A DNA stretch of 64,000 nt, from IMG/VR virus record IMGVR_UViG_2681813318_000003, one strand, 5' to 3'. This DNA comes from a virus (taxonomy: Duplodnaviria; Heunggongvirae; Uroviricota; Caudoviricetes). Numbering within the stretch: the first letter of the stretch is position 1; the number at the start of each line of letters is the position of its first letter. Below, one piece after another: positions 735-43,086 of the stretch. The notes below the pieces were generated by a model. It was not told where the DNA came from and did no database searches. It saw only the letters and a program-made list of their open reading frames with translations. The position numbers and the translations under genes are program-made.

Positions 735-838
735 GTGTTTTCCTTTTGCTTATTGATGTGTTTAAACAAGTTGTTATCTTATTTGTTTAAACAAGGTTTA
801 CAAATCAAAGAGAAGGTGGGGATATCCCCCACCATATG

Positions 839-3154
839 TCAGATTTTGCAGGCTCCGTCGCACTCATCTTCTGGCTCGACGGCTACAGCTTGCGTCAGTG
901 GATTCTGCGGTTCGTCGTCATCACGCTTTCCTGCCCCATCTCTGGTGTTGTGGTAGTAAAGCGTTTTAACTCCCATCTTGTAGGCGAGAAGCAAATCTGA
1001 CAGTAGCGTCATCATTGGGACTTTATCGCCTTCAAAGCGAGAAGGGTCATAGTTGGTATTGGCTGAAATAGCCTGGTCAAAGAACTTCTGGATGATCGCC
1101 ACCTTTGTCAGATAGCCGCGGTTGTCCGGCATATCCCACAGGTATTCATACTGTTCCTTCAGTTTTTCAAACTCAGGCACGACCATCTTAACGATGCCGT
1201 CCTTAGAAGATTTCACCGACACCGGGCCACGAGGCGGTTCGATGCCGTTGGTGGAATTAGTGATCTGGCTGGAAGTCTCGCATGGCATTTGTGCCGTCAG
1301 TGTGGAGTTGCGAAGGCCGTATTTTGCAATACGTTCACGCAGTTCTTCCCACGGCATCTTTAACTCAAAGTTGGTTTCGCCACTTTCGTCTAATGAAGAA
1401 CGGTAATGGTCGATCGGCAACTGACCAATTGCGTACTTGGTCTGCTCAAACCAGTCACACTCACCTTTTGCTTCAGCAAGTCGGCAGCTGGCATCAAGAA
1501 GGTAATACTGGATAGCTTCGAACGTTTCATGCACCAGTTTATTGCCAGCGGTATCAGAATAACGAACGCCATTCTTTGCCAGGTAATAAGCAAAGTTGGT
1601 TACACCAATTCCCAAGCTACGACGAGCTTTGGCAGGCACTGCGGCTGCCTCCATCGGATAGTCTTGATAATCCAGTAACGAATCCAGTGCAGCAACGGCA
1701 TAGAACGCCACCTCTTTAAGAGACTCCAGTGAACGGATGGCTCCGAGGTTAAAAGCGGATAAAGTGCATAGCGCGATCTCACCGTTCGGGTCGTCGGTAA
1801 ATGCCAGTGGACGAGTGGGTAGAGTGATCTCCATGCACAGGTTTGACTGGCGGACAGGTGCAAGAGCAGGAATGAAAGCGCCATGCTCATTAATATGATC
1901 GACGTTCGCAATATAAATTCGGCCCGTGGACGCTCGTTCCTGCATCAGAGATGAGAACAGCTCAATGGCAGACACTGACTTCTTGCGAATTGAATCATCG
2001 GCTTCGTATTTATGGTACAGCTTTTCAAACAGATCCTGGTCTGTGAAGAAGGCTTCGTACATATCAGGCACATCATGCGGGCTGAACAGAGTGATGTTCT
2101 CGCTTCTGACGAGTCGACGGTACATTAGACGGTTACTCATGACGCCGTAATCAAGATGGCGAACGCGGTTTTCATCAATACCACGGTTATTTTTCACCAC
2201 CAGCAGACTTTCAACTTCAAGATGCCAGATCGGGTAAAACGCTGTTGCTGCGCCACCACGAACACCACCTTGCGAACAAGATTTAACAGCCGTCTGGAAA
2301 TGCTTCAGGAATGGAATAACTCCGGTATGGGTGGCTTCACCATTGCGGATCTCGCTGCCCAGCGCACGGATACGGCCAAAACCAATACCAATTCCAGCAC
2401 GACGTGAAACGTAGTCGATAATTGCGGCTGAAGCTGCACTAATCCCTTTCAGACTATCGCCAGACTCAATCAGCACACAACTGGAGAACTGACGGGTTGG
2501 AGTACGGACGCCGGCCATGATTGGTGTGGGCAGAGACAGTTTGAACGTACTTGTAACGTCATAGAAACCTTTGACCATCTCCATACGTGTTTTACCAGCG
2601 CAGTCGTCTTCCCAATTCTGGAACAGACACATGCCTACCAGCATATAGATATGTTGCGGCCCCTCATGAATCTCACCAGTAACACGGTTTTGAACGAGGT
2701 ATTTGCTTTGCAACTGCACCGTAGCTGCATAGCCAAAAAGATCGTCACGTTTCGGCTTAATGTAATTGCCGAGTTCTTCGATCTCTTCAAACGAATAATG
2801 TGTCAGCAAATCCTTGTCATAAACGCCCTTGTTAACGTTCTTGACAATGTGTTGGTAGAAGTTCGGATAGTCGTAACGACCGAAGGCATCTTTGCGGATT
2901 TTAAAAATGTTCAGGCGGGCAGCCACCTGTGAGTAATTTGGTGCTTCTGGTGAGATCAAATCAGCGGCAGATTTAACCAAAGCCTCATGCAACTGGCTGG
3001 TGGTAATCCCATCAAAAATGCTGGCCGCAGCTCCCATTGCTACAGCGGATGCGCTTACACCACGAATGCCTTCTACGCCATACATTACGACGCGGTTGTA
3101 TTTTTCTTCGGATAACGGCTCTGTTTGGCCGTTACGTTTTACGATGCTTATCAT
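839..3154 (-). CDS. nrdA: ribonucleotide reductase class Ia alpha subunit (NrdA)
   Basis: 771 aa; N-terminal ATP-cone, catalytic motifs (SLPTPIMAGVRTPTRQFSSCVLIE, CSQGGVRGGAAT, NLCMEI, GLRNSTL) and C-terminal CxxxxC tail (CDGACKI), as in E. coli NrdA. Confidence 0.93.
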   Translation of the reverse strand: MISIVKRNGQTEPLSEEKYNRVVMYGVEGIRGVSASAVAMGAAASIFDGITTSQLHEALVKSAADLISPEAPNYSQVAARLNIFKIRKDAFGRYDYPNFYQHIVKNVNKGVYDKDLLTHYSFEEIEELGNYIKPKRDDLFGYAATVQLQSKYLVQNRVTGEIHEGPQHIYMLVGMCLFQNWEDDCAGKTRMEMVKGFYDVTSTFKLSLPTPIMAGVRTPTRQFSSCVLIESGDSLKGISAASAAIIDYVSRRAGIGIGFGRIRALGSEIRNGEATHTGVIPFLKHFQTAVKSCSQGGVRGGAATAFYPIWHLEVESLLVVKNNRGIDENRVRHLDYGVMSNRLMYRRLVRSENITLFSPHDVPDMYEAFFTDQDLFEKLYHKYEADDSIRKKSVSAIELFSSLMQERASTGRIYIANVDHINEHGAFIPALAPVRQSNLCMEITLPTRPLAFTDDPNGEIALCTLSAFNLGAIRSLESLKEVAFYAVAALDSLLDYQDYPMEAAAVPAKARRSLGIGVTNFAYYLAKNGVRYSDTAGNKLVHETFEAIQYYLLDASCRLAEAKGECDWFEQTKYAIGQLPIDHYRSSLDESGETNFELKMPWEELRERIAKYGLRNSTLTAQMPCETSSQITNSTNGIEPPRGPVSVKSSKDGIVKMVVPEFEKLKEQYEYLWDMPDNRGYLTKVAIIQKFFDQAISANTNYDPSRFEGDKVPMMTLLSDLLLAYKMGVKTLYYHNTRDGAGKRDDDEPQNPLTQAVAVEPEDECDGACKI

Positions 3155-3227
3155 GTATCACCAAATAAAGAGGGCCACTAAATATAGTGGCCCATGTTAA
3201 TAGATAAGCACTTACCTATCAACGAGA

Positions 3228-3797
3228 TCAAATGAGAGACTTGAGAACATCGCGCACCTGGCGAAACTGATCTGTTTGCATACCGGTATGGATGGCAGCC
3301 ACCGCATCAGCCAAATGTTCGTTTTTGTTCACGAGAACATCCTGTCCAGATTGCTTACGACGCAGCCACGGTGCTTTAGGGTGTTTTTTCGTAGCCCACT
3401 GGATAATCTCTTCTTTCGATGTAGTAAGTTTATTGCCGACAAAATGCTTGATTTCGTTTGGAGTAACCTGGATCAATGGCTTATCCACACACGCAAGTAC
3501 ACCGATACAAATACCGTAAGACGTCTGCGAACGAGAGTTTTGGCTCCCAACCGGTAGCTCACAAAAAACCATATTTGCCTTATCAATGATTGGCTTCGCA
3601 ACACGCCATATTTCACTGGCTCGGCGCAGATCGTCACTGTTCACACGAACGGTCTTTTTGTTACTCCCCGCTTTAGTCTCAACAAGAGTAAGGCCGTGAA
3701 TCTCAAGTTCGTCCGTCTCAAGGTCTAAAGTGCCCACAGCAAGCCCAAAGTTGCTCATTGAGGGATCAACACCAACTACGCTGATTTTTTTACTCAT
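3228..3797 (-). CDS. RuvC-like Holliday junction resolvase
   Basis: 189 aa; N-terminal VVGVDPS...FG motif and C-terminal EHLADAVAAI motif typical of the RuvC/RNase H-like fold. Confidence 0.65.
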   Translation of the reverse strand: MSKKISVVGVDPSMSNFGLAVGTLDLETDELEIHGLTLVETKAGSNKKTVRVNSDDLRRASEIWRVAKPIIDKANMVFCELPVGSQNSRSQTSYGICIGVLACVDKPLIQVTPNEIKHFVGNKLTTSKEEIIQWATKKHPKAPWLRRKQSGQDVLVNKNEHLADAVAAIHTGMQTDQFRQVRDVLKSLI

Positions 3798-3806
3798 ATA
3801 GTCTCC

Positions 3807-4550
3807 TTACCATGTTCCCCATATAGGGTTTTCCAATAATCTCGCCTCCAACGAATTGGCTACTATTGCCGTTTGCAACGTTGGTTGGGGATAGTTTGCA
3901 AAGTCTGAATACTCATTTTCCTGCGTGACACGTTTATCTGCGGCATGTTTAACACCACTTGCTATGAAATGACGCATGATGCCCAACAGCCTCCGACTGT
4001 CTGCACTATCGTTTGCTAAAACATGAGGGAGCTGAAGTTCGATTTCTACCATTTCTCCATACTTACCAACAAACTGTAGTTTGTCCGCACTGTACTTTTT
4101 ATCCCTCCTTTGGATAAGGAAACCAGTAAAAGCATCACCTGGCGATGCCAAACTATCCGCCCGCTTATTGGCAAGTCGAATAAGGTTCGTGAAAGCCATA
4201 CAGAGATGCGCATCCATTGCCCCAAAGAACCCTTCGCTATTAATGTTAAGATCTTCAGTTTCATGGGTTGCGATAAACCCAGGTCCGACGTTGGGAAGAT
4301 ATCCCCCCTCAACAAAAGGATTAATCAAGATCGGCGCAATACATCCAGACGGCAGTGATTCCAAACTTTGCATCAATGGTGTCTCGGATATTAGACCAAG
4401 CAACGGGGCGAATTGTGCTTTGTCAATATTATTGCTGCCCCACAGAATACGTGGAGCCGCACTATTGGAAGTATGCCCATTGATCAGTTTTATCGACTGC
4501 ATCACTGCAAACACCTGCAAAAACTGCGAGCGGCTTAATTTAAACGACAT
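3807..4550 (-). CDS. hypothetical protein
   Basis: 247 aa ORF; start overlaps the 3' end of the upstream SbcC-like gene (operon-like packing). No recognised motif. Confidence 0.6.
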   Translation of the reverse strand: MSFKLSRSQFLQVFAVMQSIKLINGHTSNSAAPRILWGSNNIDKAQFAPLLGLISETPLMQSLESLPSGCIAPILINPFVEGGYLPNVGPGFIATHETEDLNINSEGFFGAMDAHLCMAFTNLIRLANKRADSLASPGDAFTGFLIQRRDKKYSADKLQFVGKYGEMVEIELQLPHVLANDSADSRRLLGIMRHFIASGVKHAADKRVTQENEYSDFANYPQPTLQTAIVANSLEARLLENPIWGTW

Positions 4551-6456: not shown

Positions 6457-6685
6457 ATAACACCTTTGATACCGTGTGTTAGCTTTTGACCTTCTTTCAA
6501 TCTGAACTCCGTATGCGCCGGGAAGGATCTGCGCCTCAATACGCCTTTTCTGGTTAACCTTCCAAGATAAAACGCTACGGGATTTCCTTGTGGCGGGTAG
6601 GGCTTGTGAAACATCACCGTCTGGCCTCGTTCAAGTCTTTTCATCGTGATGGCAAAGTCTCGAAAGCTCCCATAACGACTTTGCC

Positions 6686-7771: not shown

Positions 7772-8092
7772 GTGTTTTTCCTTTGTGGTTATTTGATACA
7801 AATCTTAAGCTTGCTCGAGAGGTGAGCAACCAAGACAGCACGGCACAGAAGAACATCAACAGGCATAGTATTACAAAATAAATAGGTAAGTGAATACCTA
7901 CCAAAATTGTTGAATGGATTGCTTACAAGGCGGCTAGAGTTTCATTGAAGTGCTTAGATGTATATGGTAGGCAAAAGTCTCATCGTTACATATGAATGAA
8001 CTATCTCATGGGTCATGTATCATTTGATATTTTTATTATCAACAATTACTGTATAAGAGGAATTTTCCAAATTGAAAAAGGATTGATTATCA

Positions 8093-8350: not shown

Positions 8351-8441
8351 ATAGTTGTATTAGTTTTGAGGGTTTGTCTCTTAAAGGATTACCATTACTT
8401 GGATGAGTAAATTTTAAACAGGAAAAGTTCTAAAAGCCAAT

Positions 8442-9151: not shown

Positions 9152-9227
9152 ATGTCATTTTTCTGTGATTGTTAGCCGAGGCAACGATAACCCACCAGGT
9201 GCGCCGAAGGTAGTAAATGCCTGTTTT

Positions 9228-9310
9228 AATTATTCACATATCCACAGGATAGATCCTAATAAAGAGATCCATAGATAGATCCTTGTATAGATCAAATAAG
9301 ATCCCCGATC
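9228..9310. promoter_or_regulatory. origin-like region: two tandem DnaA boxes plus six clustered GATC sites in heptamer repeats
   Basis: TTATTCACA (9230-9238) and ATATCCACA (9238-9246) match the DnaA box consensus TTATNCACA. GATC at 9252, 9266, 9278, 9290, 9300, 9307 within (T/A)AGATCC repeats spaced about 12 bp. Confidence 0.7.
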
Positions 9311-9350
9311 GCTGTAAGCCGCGCCACGACTGGTCTGAAGCCATGTTCAT

Positions 9351-9457
9351 GTATGCTACCAGCGGTAATTGATAGTCTGTCAACGGTTCGCCGTATGCTG
9401 CCAACTGTTTTTGGTATGCTGCCAGCGGCAAATCAAGTATGCTGTCAGCGGTTGAAT
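9351..9457 (+). repeat. upstream iteron set (4-5 direct repeats, consensus GTATGCTGYCAGCGGT)
   Basis: Copies at 9351-9368, 9392-9409 (degenerate), 9414-9432, 9438-9457, plus a partial copy at 9375-9388; immediately precede the rep start. Confidence 0.8.
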
Positions 9458-9472
9458 GACAAAGGTGTCCAC

Positions 9473-10567
9473 ATGTCCACAAAAAATAAAAAAGGTAAAA
9501 ATAACAAAGAAGTAGAAGATAATCTCGACAACTTTGAAGAAGGTTCCCTTGAATTGTACACAGGGGAACTTGTCCCTAATAGCAACAATACAGTCCAACC
9601 AATTGCGTTGATGCGGCTGGGGTTGTTCGTGCCCACGCTCAAGGGGACAAAATACAGCAAGCGTAACAAGCCAAATGAGATCGATGCTTCAAAGGAGCTT
9701 GTTCAGCTCGAAGTAGCCCGTTCTGAAGGTTATTCCGATATCAAGATAACCGGTCCTCGTCTCGACATGGATCATGATTTCAAAACGTGGGTGGGCGTTG
9801 TGCGTTCGCTGGCAGAATACGGCGAACCTAACGGTCGTGTCGAGTTAAGCATCACGAAATTTGCGAAGTTTTGTGGCTATCCATCGTCACAGATCCGCAA
9901 AACACTCCGCGACCGGCTTACAAACAGTCTTTTGAAGATCATGCGTACAACTCTGTCTTTTCAGAGAACGTATGAAGAAAAGAACGTCGACGGCTCTAAC
10001 AAGATCTCGCTTCTGATGGTGCACCTCATCAATAGCGTGGACTACAACGAGCAGAAAGATACGGTGGTGTTCTATGCAGAACCGAAGCTGGCCGAACTAT
10101 ATCGCTTTGACCATAAGGTTCTTTTGCAGTTAAAGGTTATCAATAAGCTACCACGCAAAGAAACAGCACAGGCTCTGTACACCTTCATCGAAAGTCTTCC
10201 AACCAAGCCTGCGCCGGTATCGCTTGCTCGATTACGTGCGCGACTCAATTTGAGTAGCAGGAATGTCAGCTCGCAGAATCAGACTATACGTAACGGCTTA
10301 AAAGCTCTCCAAGATTTGGGCTATCTCGAATACAGCGAGATTAAGCGAGGGCGGTCGATCTATATCCAGATTCACAGCCGCAATCCAAAACTCAAAGTCG
10401 CACCGCCAAAACCTGAAGACATCGAACCCAAAAAACCAGATGAGAAAGCTGGGGAAATTGATGCCAAACAGAACATTATCAACAAGATAACCGAACTTTC
10501 GCAGAATTTGACGCCTGAAAATATCAAGATGATTGAGATCCTTTCCAATAGTCTCAAACTGCTTTGA
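9473..10567 (+). CDS. repA: iteron-binding plasmid-type replication initiator (Rep)
   Basis: Flanked on both sides by iteron arrays (P1 RepA-like layout). Start set at ATG 9473 with AAAGG RBS; the track ORF start at 9353 would translate the iterons. Confidence 0.7.
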   Translation: MSTKNKKGKNNKEVEDNLDNFEEGSLELYTGELVPNSNNTVQPIALMRLGLFVPTLKGTKYSKRNKPNEIDASKELVQLEVARSEGYSDIKITGPRLDMDHDFKTWVGVVRSLAEYGEPNGRVELSITKFAKFCGYPSSQIRKTLRDRLTNSLLKIMRTTLSFQRTYEEKNVDGSNKISLLMVHLINSVDYNEQKDTVVFYAEPKLAELYRFDHKVLLQLKVINKLPRKETAQALYTFIESLPTKPAPVSLARLRARLNLSSRNVSSQNQTIRNGLKALQDLGYLEYSEIKRGRSIYIQIHSRNPKLKVAPPKPEDIEPKKPDEKAGEIDAKQNIINKITELSQNLTPENIKMIEILSNSLKLL

Positions 10568-11870: not shown

Positions 11871-11909
11871 GATAGGTAGATACTAACTTATATAAATTTT
11901 ACTGTAAAC

Positions 11910-12185: not shown

Positions 12186-12240
12186 GTGTTTTTCCTTTTG
12201 TGGTTAGTGTTTACTTATTTTGTTAGTTATGAATAGGCGA

Positions 12241-12666
12241 TCAATCTTCTTGTTTAGGGAAAAACTGTTCAATAACTCTGTCAACGGCTGTGTCTATATG
12301 GAGTAGATGCCACACAACCATATCTTTGCTTCCCATGCCTTGTGTGAATATCACGTCATACTTACGCCATGCGCAGTGGAACCAATATGCTGAGTCATCA
12401 ATTGGTAAATCCTCTCCCGCCTCTTTGAAGTATTTCAGCAGCATTGCCTGCTCTGCCGTTGGCGTTGGACCTATTTCCTGAGCGTACATACGGATGAATC
12501 GCTGCCAGTCTGTCTCGTCGGGGGTTGGATCTGGTGGGGTCATTTCTGCGATAGCGTTTCGTAGCTGATGCGCCCAATCAGGTTCAGGAAAGCCTTTTGC
12601 TACTTCATCATCAATAACATCCAGAGCCACGTTTGCGGCATCGTAGAGTTTCTTAATAGCTGTCAT
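12241..12666 (-). CDS. hypothetical acidic protein
   Basis: 141 aa; preceded by AAACAA-N-TTGTTT palindrome and AAGGA RBS. Confidence 0.55.
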   Translation of the reverse strand: MTAIKKLYDAANVALDVIDDEVAKGFPEPDWAHQLRNAIAEMTPPDPTPDETDWQRFIRMYAQEIGPTPTAEQAMLLKYFKEAGEDLPIDDSAYWFHCAWRKYDVIFTQGMGSKDMVVWHLLHIDTAVDRVIEQFFPKQED

Positions 12667-12715
12667 GTTTTCTTATCCTTTTAAACAAATTGTTTTCTTA
12701 ATAAGATAATTGCGA

Positions 12716-12741
12716 TAAAAAAGGCGTCCAACTGGACGCCT
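12716..12741 (-). terminator. rho-independent terminator (GGCGTCC/GGACGCC hairpin)
   Basis: Stem 12723-12729 / 12734-12740, loop AACT; T-run on the minus strand (A-run 12716-12722 on plus); follows stop of the SPFH gene. Confidence 0.7.
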
Positions 12742-12757
12742 GAACTTTTTAGGGGAG

Positions 12758-13792: not shown

Positions 13793-13855
13793 GTGTTTTC
13801 CTATGTGGTTGTTATGCGAAAATAATAAGTAAGTACTTATATATTTTCAAGAGAT

Positions 13856-17260: not shown

Positions 17261-17377
17261 GTGTTTCTCCTTGTTGTGATTTGGCCGATGGCGCTATGCG
17301 CGTTGGGCTTTCGTTCATTCGTGGCTCTTTCGAGCTGTTAAATGATAGATCAGTACTTACTTATTATCTATCAAAAA

Positions 17378-22872: not shown

Positions 22873-22967
22873 GCGTTTTTCCTTTGTTCTCTAATGAGCG
22901 TTCAACTTCTTATATAAATATATCATCATCTATCGTAAGTGGTTACTTATCGTTAAGGCTGTTTTGT

Positions 22968-25076: not shown

Positions 25077-25174
25077 GGCTAATCCTTTGTTATGAAAACA
25101 AATTATTTACTAGTGTGTTTAATGTAGCACTGCGCGAACAGGGAACTAAGCCATTCGCGCAGGGAGAAGAGGGG

Positions 25175-25387
25175 TTAACAGATTCTGACGGCTAAAGACC
25201 CGGAGCCGGTATTGAGAAGCGTGAAGCGTTTGTTGTTAAGTTCGAATATAAAGCCAGTTGTGTCATTCACACCAACCTGAATCTGCTCATTCGGTAGATC
25301 GGTGAGGATGTCAGCTACACACTCATCAGCTAATTTCTGTACGTGTCCGATCTCAAGAGCGATTAGGCTGGAAATAGTGGTGTTCAT
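25175..25387 (-). CDS. hypothetical protein
   Basis: 70 aa ORF divergent from the XRE regulator gene. Confidence 0.4.
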   Translation of the reverse strand: MNTTISSLIALEIGHVQKLADECVADILTDLPNEQIQVGVNDTTGFIFELNNKRFTLLNTGSGSLAVRIC

Positions 25388-25638
25388 TCAATCAATCCAT
25401 TCTAACTTATACTATGGTAAGGAATACTACTAAAATTTGTATCAATACTGAATACATTCATATCATATGCAAGTTAATTTTCTTACCTATTTTGGGCTAG
25501 TTTTTCTCCGTGCAATGGCCTTTAACCGGTCTTTTAAGTGCCTATCGAAAAAAATGATAATAGCTTTACAACCCTAACCTTTGATGTAATATCGGTAAGC
25601 ACTTACCAGAGAGAATTGAACGCGCAAAGGTTGTAACC

Positions 25639-26025
25639 ATGTCTGATAACAAGATTGAATTTATAGAAAGTCGCTACGCTGCTTTTATCGCAGGGTTGAT
25701 TGAATCCTCACCTATGAGCCAGGCCCAGATAGCCAAAACAATTGGGTATAAAAACGCCAACAACCTTTCTTTAATTAAAAGCGGCAAAATTCCTTTGCCT
25801 ATCGATAAGGTTCGTCCGCTGGCGCTGGCACTGGGTATTGAGCCAAGTCGTCTTATGATGATGGTGCTGGAAGAACGCCAACCCGAACTCGCAGCATTTT
25901 TATACAAAGAAGGCACTGCTCCTCTTAACGAGGACGAAAAACAGGTTCTTGCTGCATATAACGAGCGATTCGGTAAAGAGAAAGGCGCATCACAAAAGGT
26001 TGTTGAGGCCATAAAGTCTCTATGA
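25639..26025 (+). CDS. XRE-family helix-turn-helix transcriptional regulator (candidate repressor)
   Basis: 128 aa; HTH segment MSQAQIAKTIGYKNANNLSLIKSGK; AAAGG RBS; divergent 250 bp control region upstream containing a GGTAAGCACTTACC palindrome. Confidence 0.65.
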   Translation: MSDNKIEFIESRYAAFIAGLIESSPMSQAQIAKTIGYKNANNLSLIKSGKIPLPIDKVRPLALALGIEPSRLMMMVLEERQPELAAFLYKEGTAPLNEDEKQVLAAYNERFGKEKGASQKVVEAIKSL

Positions 26026-27123
26026 AAAATTTACACGAATAAGCTCTGTTGATAGACGATCTCCCTTAAATTTGTGGTCAATTTCGTCTAAATCCGGTTG
26101 CTCTACGATTGATGCGATGTACGTCGAGAAACTTTCTAAGGCGTCTCGCATCTCGTCCATATAATCGTGCCGGTCGTAGACCCGATCTATCCCCTCAAGA
26201 CTGTGGTTCATGATTTTACGTGATACCTCCTGGCTTATGCCTAATGCTGGGAAGTAACTACGCGCAGTACGGCGCAAATCTCGGGGTGTAAATGGCTCAA
26301 GCTCCATCAGTTCTGGTCGTTCCAGAATACGACGTAATGCCTGGGCTATTGCCACTTTAGACATAGGAAGGTCTTTCCCGATTTTTTTATTCGAAGGCAC
26401 GAGCCACTGGCTGTCTTTACCGTATTCGAACAACTCTTCAATGCATGTGCGCATTAATGTGCTTAAAGGCAGCGAATGCTCACGTGCTGACTTGTTTCTC
26501 TTGCCTTGATTCCAAACCCCACGCTTAAGATTGAACTCACTTTTTTTAGCCCGCAGTACTTCGTCAGGTCGTCTTGCTGATACAAGACACAGTCTGGCCG
26601 CCCATTTTGTACCAGCGCACACATTGAAGTAGTCCCATATATTCCAGAACACCCATACCTCTGCGTCAGTCAGCTTCCGCTCGCGGGGCGTGGGCTTTGC
26701 GCCACCGGCAACTTTGTTAAGTGACATATCGTTTAACGGTGACACGTCTATCATCCCCTGGAAGGCGCACCAGCTAAGGAACTGCTTCATCAGAGAGAAA
26801 ACGCGGCGGCCCATAACAATTTTGCCATCCAGTATTAGTGGGTTGACCAGTTGGTTCACCATGAACCTATTAATGTCACTTACTTTTACATCGGCAATGT
26901 GCGGCAAAACATGTATCAAAATACAATGAACAGCGATCTCTGGCCGACGTCTGGTTATCAGCAGAGATAAGCGAGTGAATAACAGGAATGCGTCCGAGAA
27001 TCTCATGTCATTGCTGACCTGGGAGATCATAACGGCCTGCATTTGAGATGCTCTTTCGAGATACTCTATCGCCTCTTTTGAGGTGTTCTCCGCAGCGCGT
27101 GCTCTGTCAAAGCTATTTTTCAT
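26020..27123 (-). CDS. tyrosine site-specific recombinase (integrase/resolvase family)
   Basis: 367 aa; C-terminal catalytic region PRDLRRTARSYF...KIMNHSLEGIDRVYDRHDY (R..H..R..Y arrangement). Confidence 0.8.
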   Translation of the reverse strand: MKNSFDRARAAENTSKEAIEYLERASQMQAVMISQVSNDMRFSDAFLLFTRLSLLITRRRPEIAVHCILIHVLPHIADVKVSDINRFMVNQLVNPLILDGKIVMGRRVFSLMKQFLSWCAFQGMIDVSPLNDMSLNKVAGGAKPTPRERKLTDAEVWVFWNIWDYFNVCAGTKWAARLCLVSARRPDEVLRAKKSEFNLKRGVWNQGKRNKSAREHSLPLSTLMRTCIEELFEYGKDSQWLVPSNKKIGKDLPMSKVAIAQALRRILERPELMELEPFTPRDLRRTARSYFPALGISQEVSRKIMNHSLEGIDRVYDRHDYMDEMRDALESFSTYIASIVEQPDLDEIDHKFKGDRLSTELIRVNFS

Positions 27124-30508: not shown

Positions 30509-30595
30509 TGGCGGAGAGTAATGGAATCGAACCATCATCGCTTGCGCAATGGGACGGTTTTCAAGACCGCTTGAGCACCATGCTCCCTACTCTCC
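30509..30595 (-). tRNA. tRNA-Ser (anticodon UGA), type II with long variable arm
   Basis: Manual cloverleaf: acceptor GGAGAGT/ACTCTCC, anticodon stem-loop GCGGT-CUUGAAA-ACCGT (as in E. coli serT), T-arm GATGG-TTCGATT-CCATT, encoded CCA. Confidence 0.7.
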
Positions 30596-30915
30596 GGCCG
30601 TTGTGGTGGCCGGTACTGAACTCCGACACAGGGTTGTAGCAAACCCCGCAAAGCGCGCACTACTGTAGTTGCGGCACATCAGCCTGTGCATTCATCACAA
30701 CGGTAAGATCACTACCTTTCGACCAGTCATTGTGCACATGAACGACGATTAACCGTAATGATATTATCGTTGTGTTGTGAAGCCAGATGCTTATCTTCTG
30801 GTTGCTTCAAAGAGCTGCACTTCCTCACAACGGTAAGAGCACTGGTCTGACTCTATCGATTTACGGCCTTGTGGGTCAGTATCGCCGATTCGCCCAATGC
30901 TCTTACCTGTTGTGT

Positions 30916-30991
30916 TGGTGCCGGTTAACGGACTTGAACCGCTGGCCATTCGCTTACAAAGCGACTGCTCTACCAACTGAGCTAAACCGGC
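30916..30991 (-). tRNA. tRNA-Thr (anticodon UGU)
   Basis: 76 nt: GCCGGTT acceptor, D-arm GCTC-AGTTGGTA-GAGC, anticodon loop TTTGTAA, T-arm AGCGG-TTCAAGT-CCGTT, encoded CCA. Confidence 0.8.
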
Positions 30992-30995
30992 AATT

Positions 30996-31082
30996 TGGTG
31001 GGGAGTGATGGAGTCGAACCACCCGAGTCGCCATGACAGTAGATTTACAGTCTACACCGCTACCTCTACGGACTAACTCCCC
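30996..31082 (-). tRNA. tRNA-Tyr (anticodon GUA), type II
   Basis: 87 nt: acceptor GGGGAGT/ACTCCCC, anticodon stem-loop GTAGA-CTGTAAA-TCTAC, long variable arm, T-arm GGTGG-TTCGACT-CCATC, encoded CCA. Confidence 0.8.
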
Positions 31083-31087
31083 TAAAT

Positions 31088-31162
31088 TGGCGATGGTGGG
31101 TGGATTCGAACCACCGACCAGTTGGTTAACAGCCAACTGCTCTACCGCTGAGCTACACCATC
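31088..31162 (-). tRNA. tRNA-Asn (anticodon GUU)
   Basis: 75 nt: acceptor GATGGTG/CACCATC, D-arm GCTC-AGCGGTA-GAGC, anticodon stem-loop GTTGG-CTGTTAA-CCAAC, T-arm GGTGG-TTCGAAT-CCACC, encoded CCA. Confidence 0.85.
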
Positions 31163-31940
31163 AATTCAGCACTGCCAGTATTTATTACTCAACAGTGCCA
31201 ATCGCGACGGTTTAGTTTCTGCCAGGAAACGCACCGCTACTTGCACTTTTCGTTAGTGCCAGACGCTTTCGACTTCGCTCAATAGTAGAAGGCAAAATCT
31301 TTAAGTAGATGATGTTTCTGAGGACAGCACCTACTTTGTAATTTATACAATGTGATGTATGGAATCATTTGTTGTGAAAACAGGCACCAATGGCAACAGT
31401 GGTTAAACCTACACAACAATCCCGTCTTCACAACGTTGAGGCCACTACTCCGATTGAATGTTTGCCCAACATGTTACATATCAACGCTCGCCGGTATCTC
31501 TGTGAATAGAACCTTAGAATTGATAAAAATGTAATGGCCTCAACGTTGTGTGCTGGCTAACCATACCAGCCGGGCTACGTCGCCGCTTTTTAACCCAGTA
31601 TAAACGACATAATTGAACAAAATGACGTAACAGGATGGGCGGTCAGTGGCTAAGAATCCGGGAGTCATATGGAGTTGAAAATATACCGACCGCCCATTCT
31701 GTTACTTCATCGGAGGGAACACTCATGTTCCCTCCTGCGTTCTGCAATCACACTCGCTCAGTGTGTCCCATTTCGGTAACGAGGCTGGAAACTGACCTCG
31801 CTGGTGTTTGGCTTATTAGGCTACTGCCAGATAGACTTCTTCGTTTGCACTTGTATTTAAGTTCAAACAGTCGCGTCTCAACGAAAACAAAGTCATCTTA
31901 TACATAAAAGATAAGTAAGTAAATACTTATCACTATGTTT

Positions 31941-32376: not shown

Positions 32377-32592
32377 TCATTTTAACACTCCTGATTCTAC
32401 TAATTGCTGTAGCAATACTTTCCCTTTATCAGTTAACTGGTAGTTGGCCGAGCACCACGTTTCAGAAACGTTTGCAACCAATCCTAAACGCTCTAACTTA
32501 GCTCGCGTTTTAGGCTTCCAGTACTCAGGGAACTCCGGCCACTTACTTATTTCATGAAGCGTTTCTTTCTCCCGTTTACTTAATACGATCAT
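32377..32592 (-). CDS. hypothetical protein
   Basis: 71 aa; start overlaps the ligase stop (coupled); 3' end overlaps a copy of the GTATGGAATCATTT repeat. Confidence 0.45.
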   Translation of the reverse strand: MIVLSKREKETLHEISKWPEFPEYWKPKTRAKLERLGLVANVSETWCSANYQLTDKGKVLLQQLVESGVLK

Positions 32593-35228: not shown

Positions 35229-35353
35229 ACCAACTCCTAGCTAACGGATGAAAGTATTCTTACAAAAACTTAAGTATGTATCTACTTATAATTTTAGGTG
35301 CAATAGTTCCCTATACGAGGATGCCGGGCTTATAGTCTGCCCGGCATTCACCA

Positions 35354-37145: not shown

Positions 37146-38318
37146 TGCAGCTATGCCTTTTACCTTGCTTAAAAGTTCAAGCTGTCGTGAGTAAGGTTTT
37201 GCGCAATAGTAGGCTTTGATAATCTGCCCCGGGGTCGCATCGCCGGGGTCTAGTCCTTCCTCGCCCAAACATGCAATTTTCACATTAAGACCGATACTGG
37301 TCAGTCGCCTGGCTGCGGCCATAGTGTTTCGTATAGCTTGCTTTTCACTATCCCACATCATGATCACATTACGTAATCCACGCGTCTTGAGCGTCAGGAA
37401 CGCGCCTAACTGATCTTCTGCATCCTGAGTGGTGTTGCCAGATAGATGCATCCCGAACGTTCCTATTGGTTCCACATAATCACGTAATGTTTCTTCGTCA
37501 AAAATAGCTCGTTTGACCCCCATAACATCGAACGCCCCCTCACAGACAACTACAGTCTGTTTGCCGACTGCATTATGGCCGTTGTAGAGAAACTTACCTG
37601 AAGCTGGAAGCTGCATAGGAAAGAGGTAGCGGCGTTCTGCTGTACCGGTAATGTCTCGTCCCTGAAATGTCTTCATTACCCCATCCAGATCGTAAACCGG
37701 TATCAGTATTCGCATATCGAATATCTGTCCTTTAACCTGATCTGTATACGGATCTACATAGGCGTGCTTGCCTTCGACGCAGTATCGTAGGTCAAAATAC
37801 TTTGCCATTTCAGGCGATATGTTTCGTTCAACCAGATAGTCTGGAAGACGGCCATCTATAGGAAGTTCGTAATGACGAGGGAGTGCAAGTGGTCCCTCTA
37901 ACTCGACTGTGCTTGCAAGCACTATCTCTTCTTTCTTTGGTGCCCACCCCTGGGAAAGAAGAGCGTTCTGCACATATTCCTCGAACTGTCGTCGTGATTT
38001 ACCGCTGTAGTGCTTGAGGAAGACCAGCTTATTGAACTGAATCTCTTCGGGATGATCACCAGCGAAGCATTTGCCGACGCCACTGGTCAGATTGAAATAT
38101 ACCTTCCAGTTGGAGCTGCCGCATACCGGACATTCCTTGATATTCACTTCACGACCGCGAGCACTCACGCCTCCACGTCGATAAACGATACCTTCAGTGT
38201 CCAACCATTGTTCAAAATCTAATTCGGTAATTAGCTCTTTCAGCTCGCTCACGATAATTCCACTTTTAACAGGCAATATTGTGACCAACCTAAATGTTGA
38301 TATAACATAAAGGCTCAT
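37137..38318 (-). CDS. DNA primase (DnaG-like zinc finger plus TOPRIM)
   Basis: Zinc-binding CPVCGSS...C...H near N-terminus and TOPRIM VVVCEGAFDVMG. Start set at ATG 38316-38318 preceded by the conserved AAAGAAAAACAC RBS motif (track start 38390). Confidence 0.8.
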   Translation of the reverse strand: MSLYVISTFRLVTILPVKSGIIVSELKELITELDFEQWLDTEGIVYRRGGVSARGREVNIKECPVCGSSNWKVYFNLTSGVGKCFAGDHPEEIQFNKLVFLKHYSGKSRRQFEEYVQNALLSQGWAPKKEEIVLASTVELEGPLALPRHYELPIDGRLPDYLVERNISPEMAKYFDLRYCVEGKHAYVDPYTDQVKGQIFDMRILIPVYDLDGVMKTFQGRDITGTAERRYLFPMQLPASGKFLYNGHNAVGKQTVVVCEGAFDVMGVKRAIFDEETLRDYVEPIGTFGMHLSGNTTQDAEDQLGAFLTLKTRGLRNVIMMWDSEKQAIRNTMAAARRLTSIGLNVKIACLGEEGLDPGDATPGQIIKAYYCAKPYSRQLELLSKVKGIAALV

Positions 38319-38399
38319 GTGTTTTTCTTTTGTGGTTTGGCAAAAGAAAAGTTGTTTCACCAATGAATCAAGCGTGGAGGTGTTCTCCACGCTTATTTT

Positions 38400-39740
38400 T
38401 TAGGTAACGTCTAAGATCCGCTCAATGAAGCGCATTTGTTCGAGGTTTTGTTTAACACGAATGCTGATCCCTCCCTGCTGGTTACGTGAACCAGCAAAGT
38501 AGAGACGAGCCTCTCCTTTCGCTTCTTCTTCTTCGGTTTTGTTGATCGTTATTACCAGGTCAGCAATACGTACTTTTTCGATGTTGTCGGCGGCGTGCAT
38601 CATTGTGGCAACTTCTGACGCGCCACCTTCACGGTTTGTCTGCGATGCCGTGATTCCAGCAACGTTATGTTTGTCATAAAGAGCACGTAAATCGGTGTAG
38701 ATACTACGAATGTTGGCGCGATCATCACGAAGGTCATAACTGGCACGCATCAAATCTGCGTAGTCGACAACAAGCATGTCAGGCACCATGCCATTGGCTT
38801 TCATACTGTTAAGCATACGGTCCAGATCTGCCGGTGACATACTTCCTGACGGACGCTCAACCACCCACAAACTACCAATCCCCTTCGTGGCTCCCAACTC
38901 TGCCAACTTACGATGAACCTCATCGCGCCGTTCCACCAGCTTGGACATTTCTGTCTCCGACAATCTTGCATCAAAACGGTCGGATAAAATGGTGGTGTGA
39001 ACCTCCAGCGAAAGATACAGAACATTGTAGCCAGCAAGCGTTGCATTTATGGAAAATTCACCCATTGCGGTCGATTTACCGGATTTAGCGAACCCCATGA
39101 AGAGCACCATTTCACGCTTCGCCCAGCCTTTTTGGTACAGCAACCTATCGAGCAGAGGGAGTCCAGTTGTAATGCTGTTTGGCACATACTCCTCTGAAGC
39201 CTCATATTCACGCGCTTTCAATCGCTCACTTGCGGAGGTGTAGTAGTCATAGATTCCGGTCGCTTCGTTCGATCCAATCTGCTGAACCTTGGCCATGATT
39301 GCCATCGCCCCCTGAAAGTCGCCTTTCTCTTTCAGTTCAGCAGCCTTAATCAGAGCATCATCAAACGCTACACTTTTTGCGAAGGTTGATACCTGGTCAA
39401 CCATGTACGAGGTATCGGACAATTTTTCTGCAAGAATGCGCTTAAACGCAGCAACAACATCGGCGAATAGTTCCTCACGGATAGTCTTATCGCGTTTCGC
39501 ACGCTTAAGCATATCCAGAATTGCAGATGAAGAGGGCGCGCTCTTGTACATACGGTAATAGCCCGAAACCATATTAACCAATATGGCATTGGCCGCATTG
39601 GCAAATTGGCTAGGCACAACCAGATCTCCCGCACGAGTAAGAAACTCGTGATCACGACAAAAATATGCCGTCAGTCTGTTCTGGAAATCTTCATCAAACT
39701 CTTCGGACAGCCCGCGTCCTGTATGGCAAAGTTCTGTCAT
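38400..39740 (-). CDS. DnaB-like replicative DNA helicase
   Basis: 446 aa; Walker A GFAKSGKST, Walker B LVVDYADL, SQTNR arginine-finger region typical of the DnaB/RecA-fold helicase family. Confidence 0.8.
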   Translation of the reverse strand: MTELCHTGRGLSEEFDEDFQNRLTAYFCRDHEFLTRAGDLVVPSQFANAANAILVNMVSGYYRMYKSAPSSSAILDMLKRAKRDKTIREELFADVVAAFKRILAEKLSDTSYMVDQVSTFAKSVAFDDALIKAAELKEKGDFQGAMAIMAKVQQIGSNEATGIYDYYTSASERLKAREYEASEEYVPNSITTGLPLLDRLLYQKGWAKREMVLFMGFAKSGKSTAMGEFSINATLAGYNVLYLSLEVHTTILSDRFDARLSETEMSKLVERRDEVHRKLAELGATKGIGSLWVVERPSGSMSPADLDRMLNSMKANGMVPDMLVVDYADLMRASYDLRDDRANIRSIYTDLRALYDKHNVAGITASQTNREGGASEVATMMHAADNIEKVRIADLVITINKTEEEEAKGEARLYFAGSRNQQGGISIRVKQNLEQMRFIERILDVT

Positions 39741-39783
39741 GTGCTTTCCTTTGTTTTTTAAACAAATTGTTTTCTAGTATTAG

Positions 39784-40533
39784 TTAATTAGATAGGGGAT
39801 CAATAAACCGCCGTGCTTCTTCCAGTTCTTCTGGAAAGTGGGCGGAAATAAGGCGCTCTGGAACGATTTCCATTAGCCAGATAGCGGAGAAAATTGCGCG
39901 TATGCGCTTGCTGCGAGGGATGGTGCGCAAACGCTCCAGAATCCACTCAAAATAGCTTTCCTGAATCGGGTTGAACTGCATGTCTCCCATATGCTTAAAG
40001 CTAACAAGAGAGTCATCCAGACGGGTTGTTGCGCGTCTGGCTAATTTCTCTTCGAATATCTCAACCAGCTCTGGCTGCCACAAATGCTGTGGGCGCGGCA
40101 GCTTGTCCCACAGCCGTCGTGCAGCTGCGGAAAGAACGGTGGAGATAAAGTAGTCGTATGAGCAGCAATAGCGGTCAGCAAACTGGCGTGCTTTCCATAG
40201 AGACGTTTTATTGGCAGTCGACAACTCCTGATAAGGCAGGCGTTTTAACCCGGTGGTGAACGGAGCTGTTTCAAAGTGTTCGCGACCGTGCGTCAGCATG
40301 ATATTTGAGTACTGACGTTTGTATGCCTCCGTAAACAGACAGGTGGCCATAAGAGGATGCATGTCTCGGTAATCAAACCACTTCGTCTCGAAGAGTTCAG
40401 CCTCGTCTTTACAGCGCGACAAACCAATGTTTTCAGCGACCCACTTGTCCATAACAGCGGTATTCCACTCTGTCATGAAGTCGTACTGGTCGTTGTCGAT
40501 GGTATCGAAAAAGATTTGGCTCATGTGGCTCAC
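39784..40533 (-). CDS. hypothetical protein
   Basis: 249 aa ORF upstream of the helicase (possibly a helicase loader by position only). Confidence 0.55.
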   Translation of the reverse strand: MSHMSQIFFDTIDNDQYDFMTEWNTAVMDKWVAENIGLSRCKDEAELFETKWFDYRDMHPLMATCLFTEAYKRQYSNIMLTHGREHFETAPFTTGLKRLPYQELSTANKTSLWKARQFADRYCCSYDYFISTVLSAAARRLWDKLPRPQHLWQPELVEIFEEKLARRATTRLDDSLVSFKHMGDMQFNPIQESYFEWILERLRTIPRSKRIRAIFSAIWLMEIVPERLISAHFPEELEEARRFIDPLSN

Positions 40534-40798
40534 CTGGTAGGTAGTTACTTACTTATCACAATGGACGGATGATAGCGACTGGTGTCAGTTTTTGGAAGTG
40601 AAAACGGAAGGGAGTTGTTCTGGTGGTGTCTTTTAAAAGACCTGCTTCCGTATATATTTAATAAGTTACTTATTATTTATATACAGAAACAGGCTCCTAA
40701 TGGATACCAAGAACAACATAATTTGACTCCAACTCCAGATGCTATGTCATTGACAGATTTATCAAGGGAGATCATGTTAGAATTAGTGTTTTAGCCTC

Positions 40799-41872
40799 GT
40801 GGATATTGTCACCATGCGCATGAATAGACTTCCAGGATATGGCCTTCCCGAACTGGCTTTTTGGCCTCAGCCTAAATATGAACGGAATAAATGGTCGATG
40901 TTCTGTCTGAAACTCCGTAATGATGGAACCCTTGCTTGGTATCGGCGATATGTTGATCGTGGTATGCCAAACCACGCTGTTGATGACGACTACGATAACT
41001 ATCCTGAAGCAAGAAAAGCGGCATTAGAGCTGAATAAAAACGTGAGCTTTGACATTGAAAAACTTCCTCTATCTATGTTTCAAAAGAAGTCATTGCGTTT
41101 GAAAGTTGACAAAGCACTCAAAGCCAAATCACGTCTCATGGATGAAGAGTATATAATGCTCAACGAAGCAATTAAGGCACACGCCAACGATCCGCGAGTG
41201 ACATTAAATGAGTTAATAATTAACCCAGATTACGAAACTTTGCGTCAACCCCTTTTTGACGTGCTAAGCGAGATGCCTTACTTACATTTTGTTTTTCTTC
41301 CCAAATTCCAAGTTTCACTTCAACTCGTTGCTCCTAACACTTGGGAATGTTCATATAACAACAAAGCTAAGACAGCGAAGATCTGCTACCAAGAACGCAT
41401 AGCCAGAGGTTTTGGTTTATCAGGTGCTGCACATTGGGGAAAAACAAAAGCGACTATTCGCTCAATGCTGCTGCCGCGTGCTAACCGGTTACTGCAACTC
41501 GCCAGCGTAAAAAGAATGCTGGATGAAGCTCTCAGGAATGGGCAAAAGGTACTGGTTGTTGGCAACTTTGTTTTCTGGTTTGAGGACAAAAATCAGGTAG
41601 GTTGGAGTGTTAAAGTTGCTAGCGAAAGCGAAACCACCTCAAGAGGCAATACGCTCTGGAAAGAAGGAACTATCATTTCAAAAAATCACGGTCGAATTGT
41701 CGTGCTGCCGTATACAAAAGAAAACGGTAAACATGTAAAAGGTTATACCAAGAATGCCCCTAACGACGGCAATGCAATTCCGAGACATAAGGATGAGTAT
41801 GTTGAGTTGCCCTTTGAAATTTTGGATGGTGACTTGATGTTCAGTCTGTTCGGTGAGCTTAACTACGAATAG
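40799..41872 (+). CDS. hypothetical protein (plus-strand orphan)
   Basis: 357 aa ORF convergent with the partition operon; start uncertain (GTG 40799 or ATG 40814/40820; no clear RBS). Confidence 0.5.
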   Translation: MDIVTMRMNRLPGYGLPELAFWPQPKYERNKWSMFCLKLRNDGTLAWYRRYVDRGMPNHAVDDDYDNYPEARKAALELNKNVSFDIEKLPLSMFQKKSLRLKVDKALKAKSRLMDEEYIMLNEAIKAHANDPRVTLNELIINPDYETLRQPLFDVLSEMPYLHFVFLPKFQVSLQLVAPNTWECSYNNKAKTAKICYQERIARGFGLSGAAHWGKTKATIRSMLLPRANRLLQLASVKRMLDEALRNGQKVLVVGNFVFWFEDKNQVGWSVKVASESETTSRGNTLWKEGTIISKNHGRIVVLPYTKENGKHVKGYTKNAPNDGNAIPRHKDEYVELPFEILDGDLMFSLFGELNYE

Positions 41873-41932
41873 CTTTCATAGAACGAAATATTTCTAAGGC
41901 TGTCCAATGCAGACCAGCCTTAGAGATTTATA

Positions 41933-42292
41933 TCAACCTTTCTTCATTAACTCGCGTTTAATTTCATCGGTACGCATCGTGACATCGGCAGCAGTGATCG
42001 CCTCGTTAAGCTTCACGATGTCCTCGATTTCCTGCGGTGACTTCTCTGCCAGATGGAAAATGGCTGCTCGAATCACGTCAGAACGAGTGAACTTCTCGAA
42101 GCGAGGGATGAACTTCATCATCTCCAGCAGTTCGAAGTATTCGTCTTCCAGTGACATTGTGCGGCTTTTAATTTTCTCTTTGCCACGAGTCGGGCGTCCC
42201 TGTGGTCTGACTGGTTGGCGCAAAGGAGTTGTGTTCTTAGCCGGTGCATCAGGCTCTTTGCGCTTTGCTAGGTCACCCATTTTCATGGACAT
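41933..42292 (-). CDS. small partition protein, candidate centromere-binding protein (ParG/ParB-like)
   Basis: 119 aa; basic flexible N-terminus (KRKEPDAPAKNTTPLRQPVRPQGRPTRGKEK) and helical C-terminal domain; immediately downstream of and coupled to parA. Confidence 0.5.
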   Translation of the reverse strand: MSMKMGDLAKRKEPDAPAKNTTPLRQPVRPQGRPTRGKEKIKSRTMSLEDEYFELLEMMKFIPRFEKFTRSDVIRAAIFHLAEKSPQEIEDIVKLNEAITAADVTMRTDEIKRELMKKG

Positions 42293-42960
42293 TATTCTTC
42301 TTCCTCCAGACTCAACAGATAATCTACAAATTCTTCAAACTCGGCTTCCGCCTTTTTGTCGCGCTCGCTACCGGTCATTTCAAAGATAGAACGACCAGAC
42401 TCTTCCGCATCATCATAGACGTTGCGGTTATATAGATTGACTGGCGCAGACTCGATGCCAAACGTCTCAACAATCTCTTTAGCCGCCAGAATGCGAGACA
42501 CTTGTGATGGCAAAGCCGGGCACTGGTTCATGACCGCGCGGACCTTCACTTTATCGTTTACATTACGAACATTGTCGATAATAGGATCAATGTCACGCAG
42601 AGATTTCAAATCACGACGCTTAGGACGAAGCGGGATAATGATAACGTCGGCCATCAGCATCGCTTGTCGCTGAATTTCGGAGTCAAAGCCACCAGCATCT
42701 ACCACTACAAACTCAGCTCTACCCTGAAGCGATTTTAGGTGCTTAATGATGTCATCCTGAACGTATGCAAAAGGAATCAGCTCAAGGTCTTCGTTCTGTC
42801 GACGGTCTTCACACCAGCTTGTTGTCGTGCGCTGAATATCTATATCAGTGATATAAACCTTCTTCTTCTTTTTGACTTTCAGGCAAACGGCAATTTGCTG
42901 GGCAACGGTGGATTTGCCAGGCCCGCCCTTTGTGCCGCCAACCACAAAGATCTTGGTCAT
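42292..42960 (-). CDS. parA: ParA/ParF-family partition ATPase
   Basis: 222 aa; deviant Walker A GGTKGGPGKST at N-terminus and ParA-like core. Confidence 0.8.
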   Translation of the reverse strand: MTKIFVVGGTKGGPGKSTVAQQIAVCLKVKKKKKVYITDIDIQRTTTSWCEDRRQNEDLELIPFAYVQDDIIKHLKSLQGRAEFVVVDAGGFDSEIQRQAMLMADVIIIPLRPKRRDLKSLRDIDPIIDNVRNVNDKVKVRAVMNQCPALPSQVSRILAAKEIVETFGIESAPVNLYNRNVYDDAEESGRSIFEMTGSERDKKAEAEFEEFVDYLLSLEEEE

Positions 42961-43086
42961 TGGAGAGTTCCCTTTGCGTATATAATTATCGTCTGAAACA
43001 ACTTGTTTTCTTATATGTGATATAGCCTAAATGCCTACGGCTGCGGTGTAAAGGTTTAATGATAGGTACATAGGTGGGCTTAATAA

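Follow-up and report, generated by a model that had tools for sequence, protein, structure and literature searches.

The plasmid prophage of phage P1 is governed by the C1 repressor, whose dispersed operators are asymmetric 17-mers (ATTGCTCTAATAAATTT). The KorB operator of plasmid RK2 is a 13-bp palindrome of 6-1-6 layout, and its class I sites lie ~39 bp upstream of the start site. Phage T4 RegA is a single protein that targets A/U-rich stretches close to the start codons of many genes; these sites overlap the start codon and are non-palindromic. T4-type phages also contain PeSL elements, repeated modules of promoter and hairpin that flank small variable early genes; PeSL elements are not known to be operators. 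FljA-type proteins are reported to block translation of the fliC mRNA (PMC2652032). Here we describe a palindrome of 13–19 bp, AGAAAACAA-n-TTGTTT, that recurs in a stretch of 64,000 nucleotides of caudoviricete DNA (IMG/VR record IMGVR_UViG_2681813318_000003), the whole of which is referred to as the window. An original prediction, made from the letters of the window, had placed such a motif upstream of nrdB, cobT, a helicase gene, parA and a gene for an acidic protein, and had proposed it as an operator for a dedicated regulator. We found one site at each of these five genes, enriched over expectation and conserved among relatives. From sequence comparison, the palindrome is very probably the binding site of a putative global regulator.

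By its identity to known genomes, the window is part of an SSU5-like phage-plasmid. Its first 12 kb are ~98% identical to Escherichia phage Cyrano (OV696614) and ~77% identical to Salmonella phage SSU5 and Klebsiella relatives. Cyrano is the phage-plasmid pLF82 of E. coli LF82 (PMC9928086). The window corresponds to the reverse complement of roughly Cyrano 7.1–71.1 kb, and thus almost all of its genes lie on the minus strand. The complete Cyrano and SSU5 genomes were used for comparison.

Exact copies of AACAANTTGTT occur four times in the window as against 0.18 expected, and none of 100 shuffled windows contained four or more. The fifth copy, upstream of cobT, has one mismatch (AACAAATTATT). 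At up to one mismatch AAACAAnTTGTTT likewise has five copies in the window, and the 6-1-6 palindrome AAACAANTTGTTT identifies the same five sites. An 18-nt weight matrix built from Cyrano sites, with Markov-shuffled windows as background, gave six matches of at least 15 bits where 0.27 were expected; all came from the five intergenic palindromes, the cobT site passing the threshold on both strands. On the minus strand, the orientation of the downstream gene, all five sites scored 20–30 bits, and all share the asymmetric flank AAGAAAACAAnTTGTTT on the coding strand, oriented with their gene. This includes the parA copy, which the original prediction had described as reversed. The predicted coordinates were approximately right and off by a few bases (the parA core is at 42997–43007, not 43000–43018). 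All five sites are non-coding in a window whose coding fraction is 0.888, and the probability of this placement in the ~11% of intergenic DNA is 0.112^5, or ~2e-5; the motif is thus not equally frequent in coding sequence. Chance, or the composition of A/T-rich intergenic DNA, might be suspected from the additional matches to AAACAANTTGTTT with two mismatches, which occur at chance frequency (10 observed, 5.9 expected). Such an origin is extremely improbable for the motif as a whole, and it is excluded by the enrichment of exact copies, by the 17–18 strong sites found per complete genome, and by the conservation of orthologous sites in ~77% identical genomes and across IMG/VR relatives.

Strong sites number 17 in Cyrano and 18 in SSU5, mostly at orthologous places. 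In both genomes single copies precede parA, the helicase gene, cobT, nrdB and the orthologue of the window gene at 12241–12666. Copies are also carried by about ten small early-type genes of unassigned role, which are clustered at Cyrano 80–98 kb, outside the window. The leader of the small terminase gene, which belongs to the late operon and lies outside the window, contains two tandem copies 25 bp apart (Cyrano 1–135, SSU5 52–94) behind a weak -10 element (CCTAAT), and a GC-rich hairpin with a T-run directly follows the palindromes and precedes the Shine-Dalgarno sequence. This layout looks like that of an attenuator or of a late leader controlled by antitermination. One SSU5 copy is in a 3′ untranslated region just before a terminator and has no evident promoter. 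The regulon had been proposed to comprise nucleotide metabolism, replication and partition. These functions are included, but the terminase leader and the small genes make the regulon wider than first proposed. At Cyrano 95805 and 97903, the starts given in the annotation for CYRAN_105 and CYRAN_110 overlap the palindrome or lie before it. Translation of these genes more likely begins at ATG codons 19–20 nt after the palindrome centre, both of which have a Shine-Dalgarno sequence.

A set of 50 IMG/VR loci that surround a single family-core gene yielded 230 distinct site contexts, 70 of them non-redundant, and contigs of Enterobacter and Nissabacter type, which represent more distant relatives, contained the same motif. 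Outside SSU5-like contigs the exact motif was found only as isolated single matches. Phylogenetic footprinting of the distinct upstream regions of the helicase gene (n=42), cobT (n=11) and parA (n=38) revealed an island of invariance exactly over (T/C)A(A/G)GAAAACAA-n-TTGTTT, within which the central base varies freely. In the helicase regions the motif is invariant, its central base being T, A or C, and both flanks have diverged; it is much better conserved there than the -10 element or the Shine-Dalgarno sequence around it. The motif is also invariant in the parA regions. The alignments indicate that the palindrome is under purifying selection, and it is this invariance across the family that leads us to regard it as a very probable regulator binding site. 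In the searchable literature we found no description of the motif or of SSU5-like promoters.

For the anatomy of the element, sites were picked by the symmetric core alone, which avoids the bias of the matrix, and were oriented by the downstream open reading frame, giving 47 non-redundant sites. The core is an exact 6-1-6 dyad whose central base was A in 16, C in 11, G in 12 and T in 8 sites. Its left, promoter-proximal arm is extended by a conserved A-G-A to AGAAAACAA; the mirror positions on the right are unconserved, so that the element is directional. A hexamer resembling a -10 element, gaTAAT, is placed such that its last T (T(-7)) is exactly 20 nt from the palindrome centre in 40 of the 47 sites. 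It is often preceded by TG, the extended -10 element of canonical copies being TGnGATAAT, at 20–21 nt upstream. From this spacing the start is predicted ~12–13 nt ahead of the centre, with the palindrome reaching from ~+7 to +19. The palindrome is therefore predicted to occupy the first ~20 transcribed bp of sigma70-type promoters, many of them with an extended -10 element. A sigma70 scan that required both a -35 and a -10 element returned nothing at the palindrome sites, consistent with extended -10 promoters that lack a -35 element.

The original prediction held that the motif lies at a fixed distance from start codons. Instead, it is the distance to the -10 element that is constant; across the family the palindrome centre is 15–56 nt from the start codon, with a mode of 19–21 nt. 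The proposed interval of 15–45 nt thus holds for the five window sites (23–42 nt) but not for the family. At the mode, the Shine-Dalgarno sequence directly follows the right arm (TTGTTTAaGGAG). About two-thirds of the non-redundant copies are of leader type, and about half of those are within 1–2 nt of the Shine-Dalgarno sequence. Some promoters contain a further copy in inverted orientation, centred in every case 51 bp upstream of the first, at about -38, with its long arm again facing the -10 element, and a few promoters have the -38 copy only. The entire promoter region forms an extended imperfect inverted repeat. Because the -38 copies often follow the terminator hairpin of the upstream gene, they are probably little transcribed. 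Natural variation breaks the C:G pair in either arm: cobT has C3>T, and several other sites have G9>A.

Expression in the Cyrano lysogen was taken from the published per-gene RNA sequencing data (S1 Table of PMC9928086; background median 9.8). Most motif-headed genes are silent. Readings were near background for terS (7.1), cobT (7.8), nrdB (12.9), CYRAN_58 (5.7), CYRAN_85 (7.0), CYRAN_87 (7.1), CYRAN_101 (7.5), CYRAN_105 (12.8), CYRAN_106 (12.2) and CYRAN_110 (6.7), and were somewhat higher for the helicase gene (21, 2-fold over background) and CYRAN_111 (25, 2.6-fold) (PMC9928086). These low readings occur despite the near-consensus extended -10 elements of motif-headed genes. Ciprofloxacin induces Cyrano 39-fold (PMC9928086). 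The lysogen data are correlative and fit repression of the motif-headed genes.

In our judgement the chances are about even that the palindrome serves as an operator on DNA, recognised by a dimeric regulator that the phage-plasmid itself encodes. Such a regulator would bind the dyad AAACAA-n-TTGTTT with its extended promoter-proximal arm, and at some promoters it would also bind the inverted copy over the -35 region, the 51-bp separation being about five helical turns. Its occupancy would block binding or escape of RNA polymerase at 17–18 promoters simultaneously. The targets would be the operons for nucleotide metabolism, replication, partition and packaging, as well as a set of small early-type genes. 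An exact 6+6 dyad with a free centre is the signature of a symmetric dimer on DNA, and phasing that is constant to the -10 element rather than to the start codon favours a DNA operator. Variants that break the C:G pair on either arm are predicted by a symmetric DNA site and not by an RNA helix. A DNA operator best explains the dyad, the -10 phasing, the 51-bp pairing, the symmetric variants and the silence at transcript level. The proposal of an operator for a dedicated regulator gains support from the footprint, from the placement between the predicted -10 element and the Shine-Dalgarno sequence, and from the lysogen data; such an operator may act on DNA, through a repressor, or on RNA, as a translational operator.

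Several observations weigh against a DNA operator. The A-G-A asymmetry in gene orientation is not needed by a purely symmetric DNA site, and the close apposition to the Shine-Dalgarno sequence in about half of the sites (TTGTTTAaGGAG) would suit translational control. The parA operon, the only clearly expressed motif-headed operon in the lysogen, is on at 50–89, or 5–9 times background, despite carrying a site (PMC9928086). All start sites are predicted from sequence, and, compared with the small-gene promoters, the -10 elements at the five sites of the window are weaker or non-canonical. A Pfam search of ten motif-driven small proteins found no DNA-binding domain, the motif was absent from the promoters of the candidate regulator genes, and no cognate DNA-binding protein emerged among the candidates examined (CYRAN_45, CYRAN_98, CYRAN_37, CYRAN_123 and the small motif-driven proteins). 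The sole family-core protein with a significant regulator domain is a homologue of FljA, with a predicted RNA-binding fold.

Among these candidates, CYRAN_45 (window 25639–26025) has been called the putative master repressor of Cyrano (PMC9928086). It was rejected as the binder because SSU5 has the motif but lacks CYRAN_45; moreover, the divergent region of CYRAN_45 contains GGTAAGCACTTACC, which belongs to another palindrome class described below. That region is a 251-bp divergent control region (25388–25638) between the helix-turn-helix repressor gene (25639–26025, plus strand) and a gene for a 70-aa protein (25175–25387, minus strand). It contains repeats of the GGTAAG/CTTACC type and an integrase gene (26020–27123) adjoins; the whole integrase-repressor module is absent from SSU5. 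CYRAN_98, annotated as LexA-like, was also rejected: this protein of 129 aa is UmuD-like, its gene is preceded by a LexA box, and SSU5 lacks it. The LexA box, TACTGTATGTGTATACAGTA (Cyrano 89240–89310), is perfect. CYRAN_37 (window 32377–32592) and CYRAN_123 gave weak winged-helix hints only.

The FljA homologue, CYRAN_114 (SSU5_121), is encoded outside the window. It matches Pfam PF03614 (Flag1_repress, FljA) over its full length (E = 1e-80), and its gene is present in 12 of 12 SSU5-like phage records, with homologues on contigs of ~100–115 kb. Its expression in the lysogen reads 18 in overnight LB and log2 ~7–8 in the other conditions (PMC9928086). An RNA-level reading is thus a serious rival, since the FljA-like gene is core to the family and FljA itself is reported to repress fliC. 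The palindrome would then be an RNA operator in the 5′ leader, through which an FljA-family protein acts as a global translational repressor or mRNA destabiliser of the lytic genes, and we regard this as possible but unlikely. The asymmetry on the transcribed strand, the sites located 1–2 nt from the Shine-Dalgarno sequence, the SSU5 copy in a 3′ untranslated region and the lack of an obvious DNA-binding candidate speak in its favour. However, exact reverse-complement symmetry has no rationale for single-stranded RNA, the -38 copies lie mostly downstream of terminators and upstream of the -10 element, and the distance to the start codon varies widely. An RNA hairpin operator was rejected, as folding of six leaders gave no stable or shared hairpin (minimum free energies of -1.2 to -5.2 kcal/mol, z of -1.6 to +0.95), with different pairings in each, and a search of Rfam gave no family matches.

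Likeness to the known FljA target was also rejected, since neither the fliC leader of E. coli K-12 nor 56 others gave a real match. Across 56 Enterobacterales, some of them species with genuine FljA, the fliC leaders scored at most 4 bits with the matrix, and their best core match had 2–3 mismatches; the conserved element in these leaders is instead an AUCAAG(U/A)UGUAA(A)UUGAU stem-loop. The phage-plasmid proteins form a subfamily that is only ~40% identical to genuine FljA. The motif is unchanged even where the FljA-like protein of relatives is only 53–57% identical. Co-occurrence is uninformative in this case. Because the FljA-like gene is found in every SSU5-like record and the motif is also core to the family, presence and absence cannot discriminate between binders, and because the motif is identical in the most distant relatives compared, co-variation of motif and regulator gives nothing to correlate.

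A wider form of RNA-level control may be considered for the FljA homologue, which was modelled as a tandem Hfq-like protein; by this fold prediction, the FljA family would be Hfq-like. The palindrome is complementary to itself, so that copies could pair with each other across different RNAs, among them leaders, 3′ ends and possible short divergent transcripts that terminate at the hairpins beside the inverted copies. The homologue might then be a global post-transcriptional silencer of lytic genes that has the palindrome as its RNA target and chaperones a network of RNA–RNA contacts on a palindromic seed, a proposal that we hold to be a little more doubtful still. If the binder were the FljA homologue, a protein family so far known from flagellar phase variation alone would gain a role in the global regulation of a phage.

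The individual window sites and neighbouring elements are listed in the table below.

Coordinates of the palindrome sites and neighbouring elements in the window. Sequences of the five AACAAnTTGTT sites are those of the coding strand, bits refer to the 18-nt matrix, and distances run from the palindrome centre to the start codon.
Feature	Position	Strand	Sequence	Remarks
Site of nrdB	763–780	-	TAAGATAACAACTTGTTTAA	core 765–775; 26.5 bits; centre 770, 36 nt before ATG at 734–732
Everted 12-bp palindrome	783–794	.	TTGTTTAAACAA	24 nt upstream of the nrdB site; distinct from the AACAAnTTGTT motif
Site of the 141-aa acidic protein gene (12241–12666)	12682–12699	-	AAGAAAACAATTTGTTTA	core 12684–12694; 29.5 bits; centre 12689, 23 nt before ATG
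Intrinsic-terminator-like hairpin	12721–12744	-	GGCGTCCAGTTGGACGCC + T-run	ends the upstream transcription unit directly before the promoter/operator at 12682–12699
Site of cobT, degenerate	25095–25112	-	TAGTAAATAATTTGTTTT	core 25097–25107; 20.5 bits; centre 25102, 26 nt before ATG
Predicted extended -10-like element of the cobT promoter	25121–25129	-	TGCTACATT	consensus match
Site of the DnaB-like helicase gene	39759–39776	-	TAGAAAACAATTTGTTTA	core 39761–39771; 28.1 bits; centre 39766, 26 nt before ATG
Site of parA	42995–43012	-	AAGAAAACAAGTTGTTTC	core 42997–43007; 27.8 bits; centre 43002, 42 nt before ATG
Predicted parA promoter	43024–43052	-		TTTACA (43047–43052), 17-nt spacer, TAGGCT (43024–43029); consensus reading
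Second-class palindrome	3201–3218			
Second-class palindrome	7885–7900			
Second-class palindrome	11873–11890			
Second-class palindrome	12204–12217			
Second-class palindrome	13826–13843			
Second-class palindrome	17346–17363			
Second-class palindrome	22936–22949			
Second-class palindrome	25592–25607		GGTAAGCACTTACC	perfect at 25594–25607
Second-class palindrome	31912–31929			
Second-class palindrome	35271–35288			
Second-class palindrome	40538–40555			
Second-class palindrome	40659–40675			
Second-class palindrome	45999–46014			
Second-class palindrome	51383–51400			
Second-class palindrome	58295–58312			

The nrdB site is kept at orthologous places in Cyrano (70322–70339) and SSU5 (70215–70232). 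Two copies had been claimed upstream of this gene. The second (TTGTTTAAACAA, or GTGTTTAAACAA at 758–769) has everted half-sites and hence a different arrangement; only TTGTTTAAAC of the everted palindrome is kept in Cyrano and SSU5, and this palindrome could represent an additional half-site or part of a promoter. TTGTAA-16-TAAGAT is a possible sigma70 promoter of nrdB, with its predicted start inside the palindrome. Both nrdB and the helicase gene have TAnnAT hexamers directly upstream of the palindrome, for which the start is predicted within it. At cobT the element reads TGcTACATT and T(-7) is 19 nt from the palindrome centre; the degenerate cobT palindrome itself is replaced at the same place in more distant relatives by the canonical CAAGAAAACAAATTGTTTT. 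The parA palindrome is centred at about +15 relative to the predicted start, and the whole promoter-palindrome region of ~75 nt is conserved among relatives.

At the 141-aa gene, terminator, promoter and palindrome are present or absent as a unit among relatives (window 12700–12745); relatives without the terminator-promoter cassette also lack the motif. In SSU5 a similar terminator-promoter-palindrome cassette heads a different gene (56844). This pattern suggests that these units are mobile regulatory cassettes. It also bears on whether a dedicated binder is needed at all, since the palindrome might be an intrinsic part of a family-specific promoter or leader module, spread as a mobile terminator-promoter cassette. 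In such a module it could serve as an initially transcribed region or an A/U-rich translational enhancer; alternatively, it could be an activator site. The constant distance to the -10 element, the joint travel with the cassette and the extended inverted repeat of the whole promoter region are in keeping with a binder-less module, and from the -38 position an activator could work at promoters without a -35 element. Nevertheless, we consider these possibilities improbable. For a leader that nothing binds, an exact 6-1-6 dyad with a free centre would be superfluous, the helicase motif is far better conserved than the -10 element or the Shine-Dalgarno sequence, +14 is not a position for an activator, and genes behind near-consensus promoters are silent in the lysogen.

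The window also contains a second class of dispersed palindromes, ~18–22 bp long with a consensus of roughly TAAGTAAGTAnnTACTTACTTA, which is more abundant than the AACAAnTTGTT class. At up to two mismatches its core occurs 21 times in the window (1.4 expected), 36 times in Cyrano and 41 times in SSU5. It is probably the first of the two motifs of the original prediction. All of the sites listed in the table are in intergenic gaps, upstream of nrdA, sbcD, ssb, cobS, the holin, tail fibre and tail L genes and others, and the site at 13826–13843 fills the spacer of a good TTGAAA-17-TATTAT promoter. Because the class is present in SSU5, which lacks CYRAN_45, it is not simply the operator of that repressor. 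Second-class sites precede internal genes of operons whose first gene carries the AACAAnTTGTT motif, and no promoter in the window is shared by both classes. As the two classes are on separate promoters, the phage-plasmid appears to use at least two global operators.

Other elements were also seen. The region upstream of repA (9353–10567, plus strand), at ~9152–9352, contains closely spaced AGATCC/TAGATC repeats with GATC, which look like iterons or Dam-methylation sites of a plasmid origin. Outside the window, a stretch of ~900 bp rich in A/C (Cyrano 94300–95200) contains repeated GCCATTACCCAA(A/T)ACA units and resembles iterons or a centromere. Four tRNA genes are clustered at 30509–31162 on the minus strand of the window (Ser-TGA, Thr-TGT, Tyr-GTA and Asn-GTT); the Cyrano annotation of tRNA genes lists Asn, Thr and Ser only.

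Clinical Enterobacteriaceae commonly contain SSU5-like phage-plasmids (pHCM2, pECOH89, Cyrano/pLF82 and Klebsiella relatives), some of which carry CTX-M-15. An invariant site that heads 17–18 transcription units offers a handle for finding the regulator, defining its regulon and building induction reporters.

Among the known systems, T4 RegA differs from the present case in that its sites overlap the start codon and are non-palindromic; we saw no RegA homologue here. The PeSL elements are alike in having promoter and hairpin modules beside small early genes, as do the terminator-promoter-operator cassettes. The FljA–fliC system of Salmonella shares a homologous protein, which is a family core gene here, and a site in a short leader beside the Shine-Dalgarno sequence. 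In contrast, the fliC leaders lack the motif, FljA has one known target as against the 17–18 needed here, and neither the dyad symmetry nor the -38 copies would be explained. The KorA and KorB systems of IncP plasmid RK2 likewise place short palindromic operators at many promoters of replication, partition and other plasmid functions. The KorB operator has the same 13-bp 6-1-6 form, and its class I sites at ~39 bp resemble the -38 copies. The sequences differ, however, most sites here are downstream of the predicted start, and in the lysogen the ParB-like genes of Cyrano read at background level. As in P1, lytic functions are scattered over many operons, each headed by a copy of one short operator, here a putative one, such that a single regulator could silence replication, recombination and other genes together. 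The P1 operators are asymmetric 17-mers of unrelated sequence whereas the present site is a 6-1-6 dyad, no C1 homologue was identified here, and the SSU5 family also has its second class of dispersed palindromes. Although the sequences are unrelated and no homologous regulator turned up, the arrangement comes closest in logic to the dispersed operators of P1 C1 and the KorA/KorB regulons of IncP plasmids, and it may be viewed as a global operator regulon of a mobile element.

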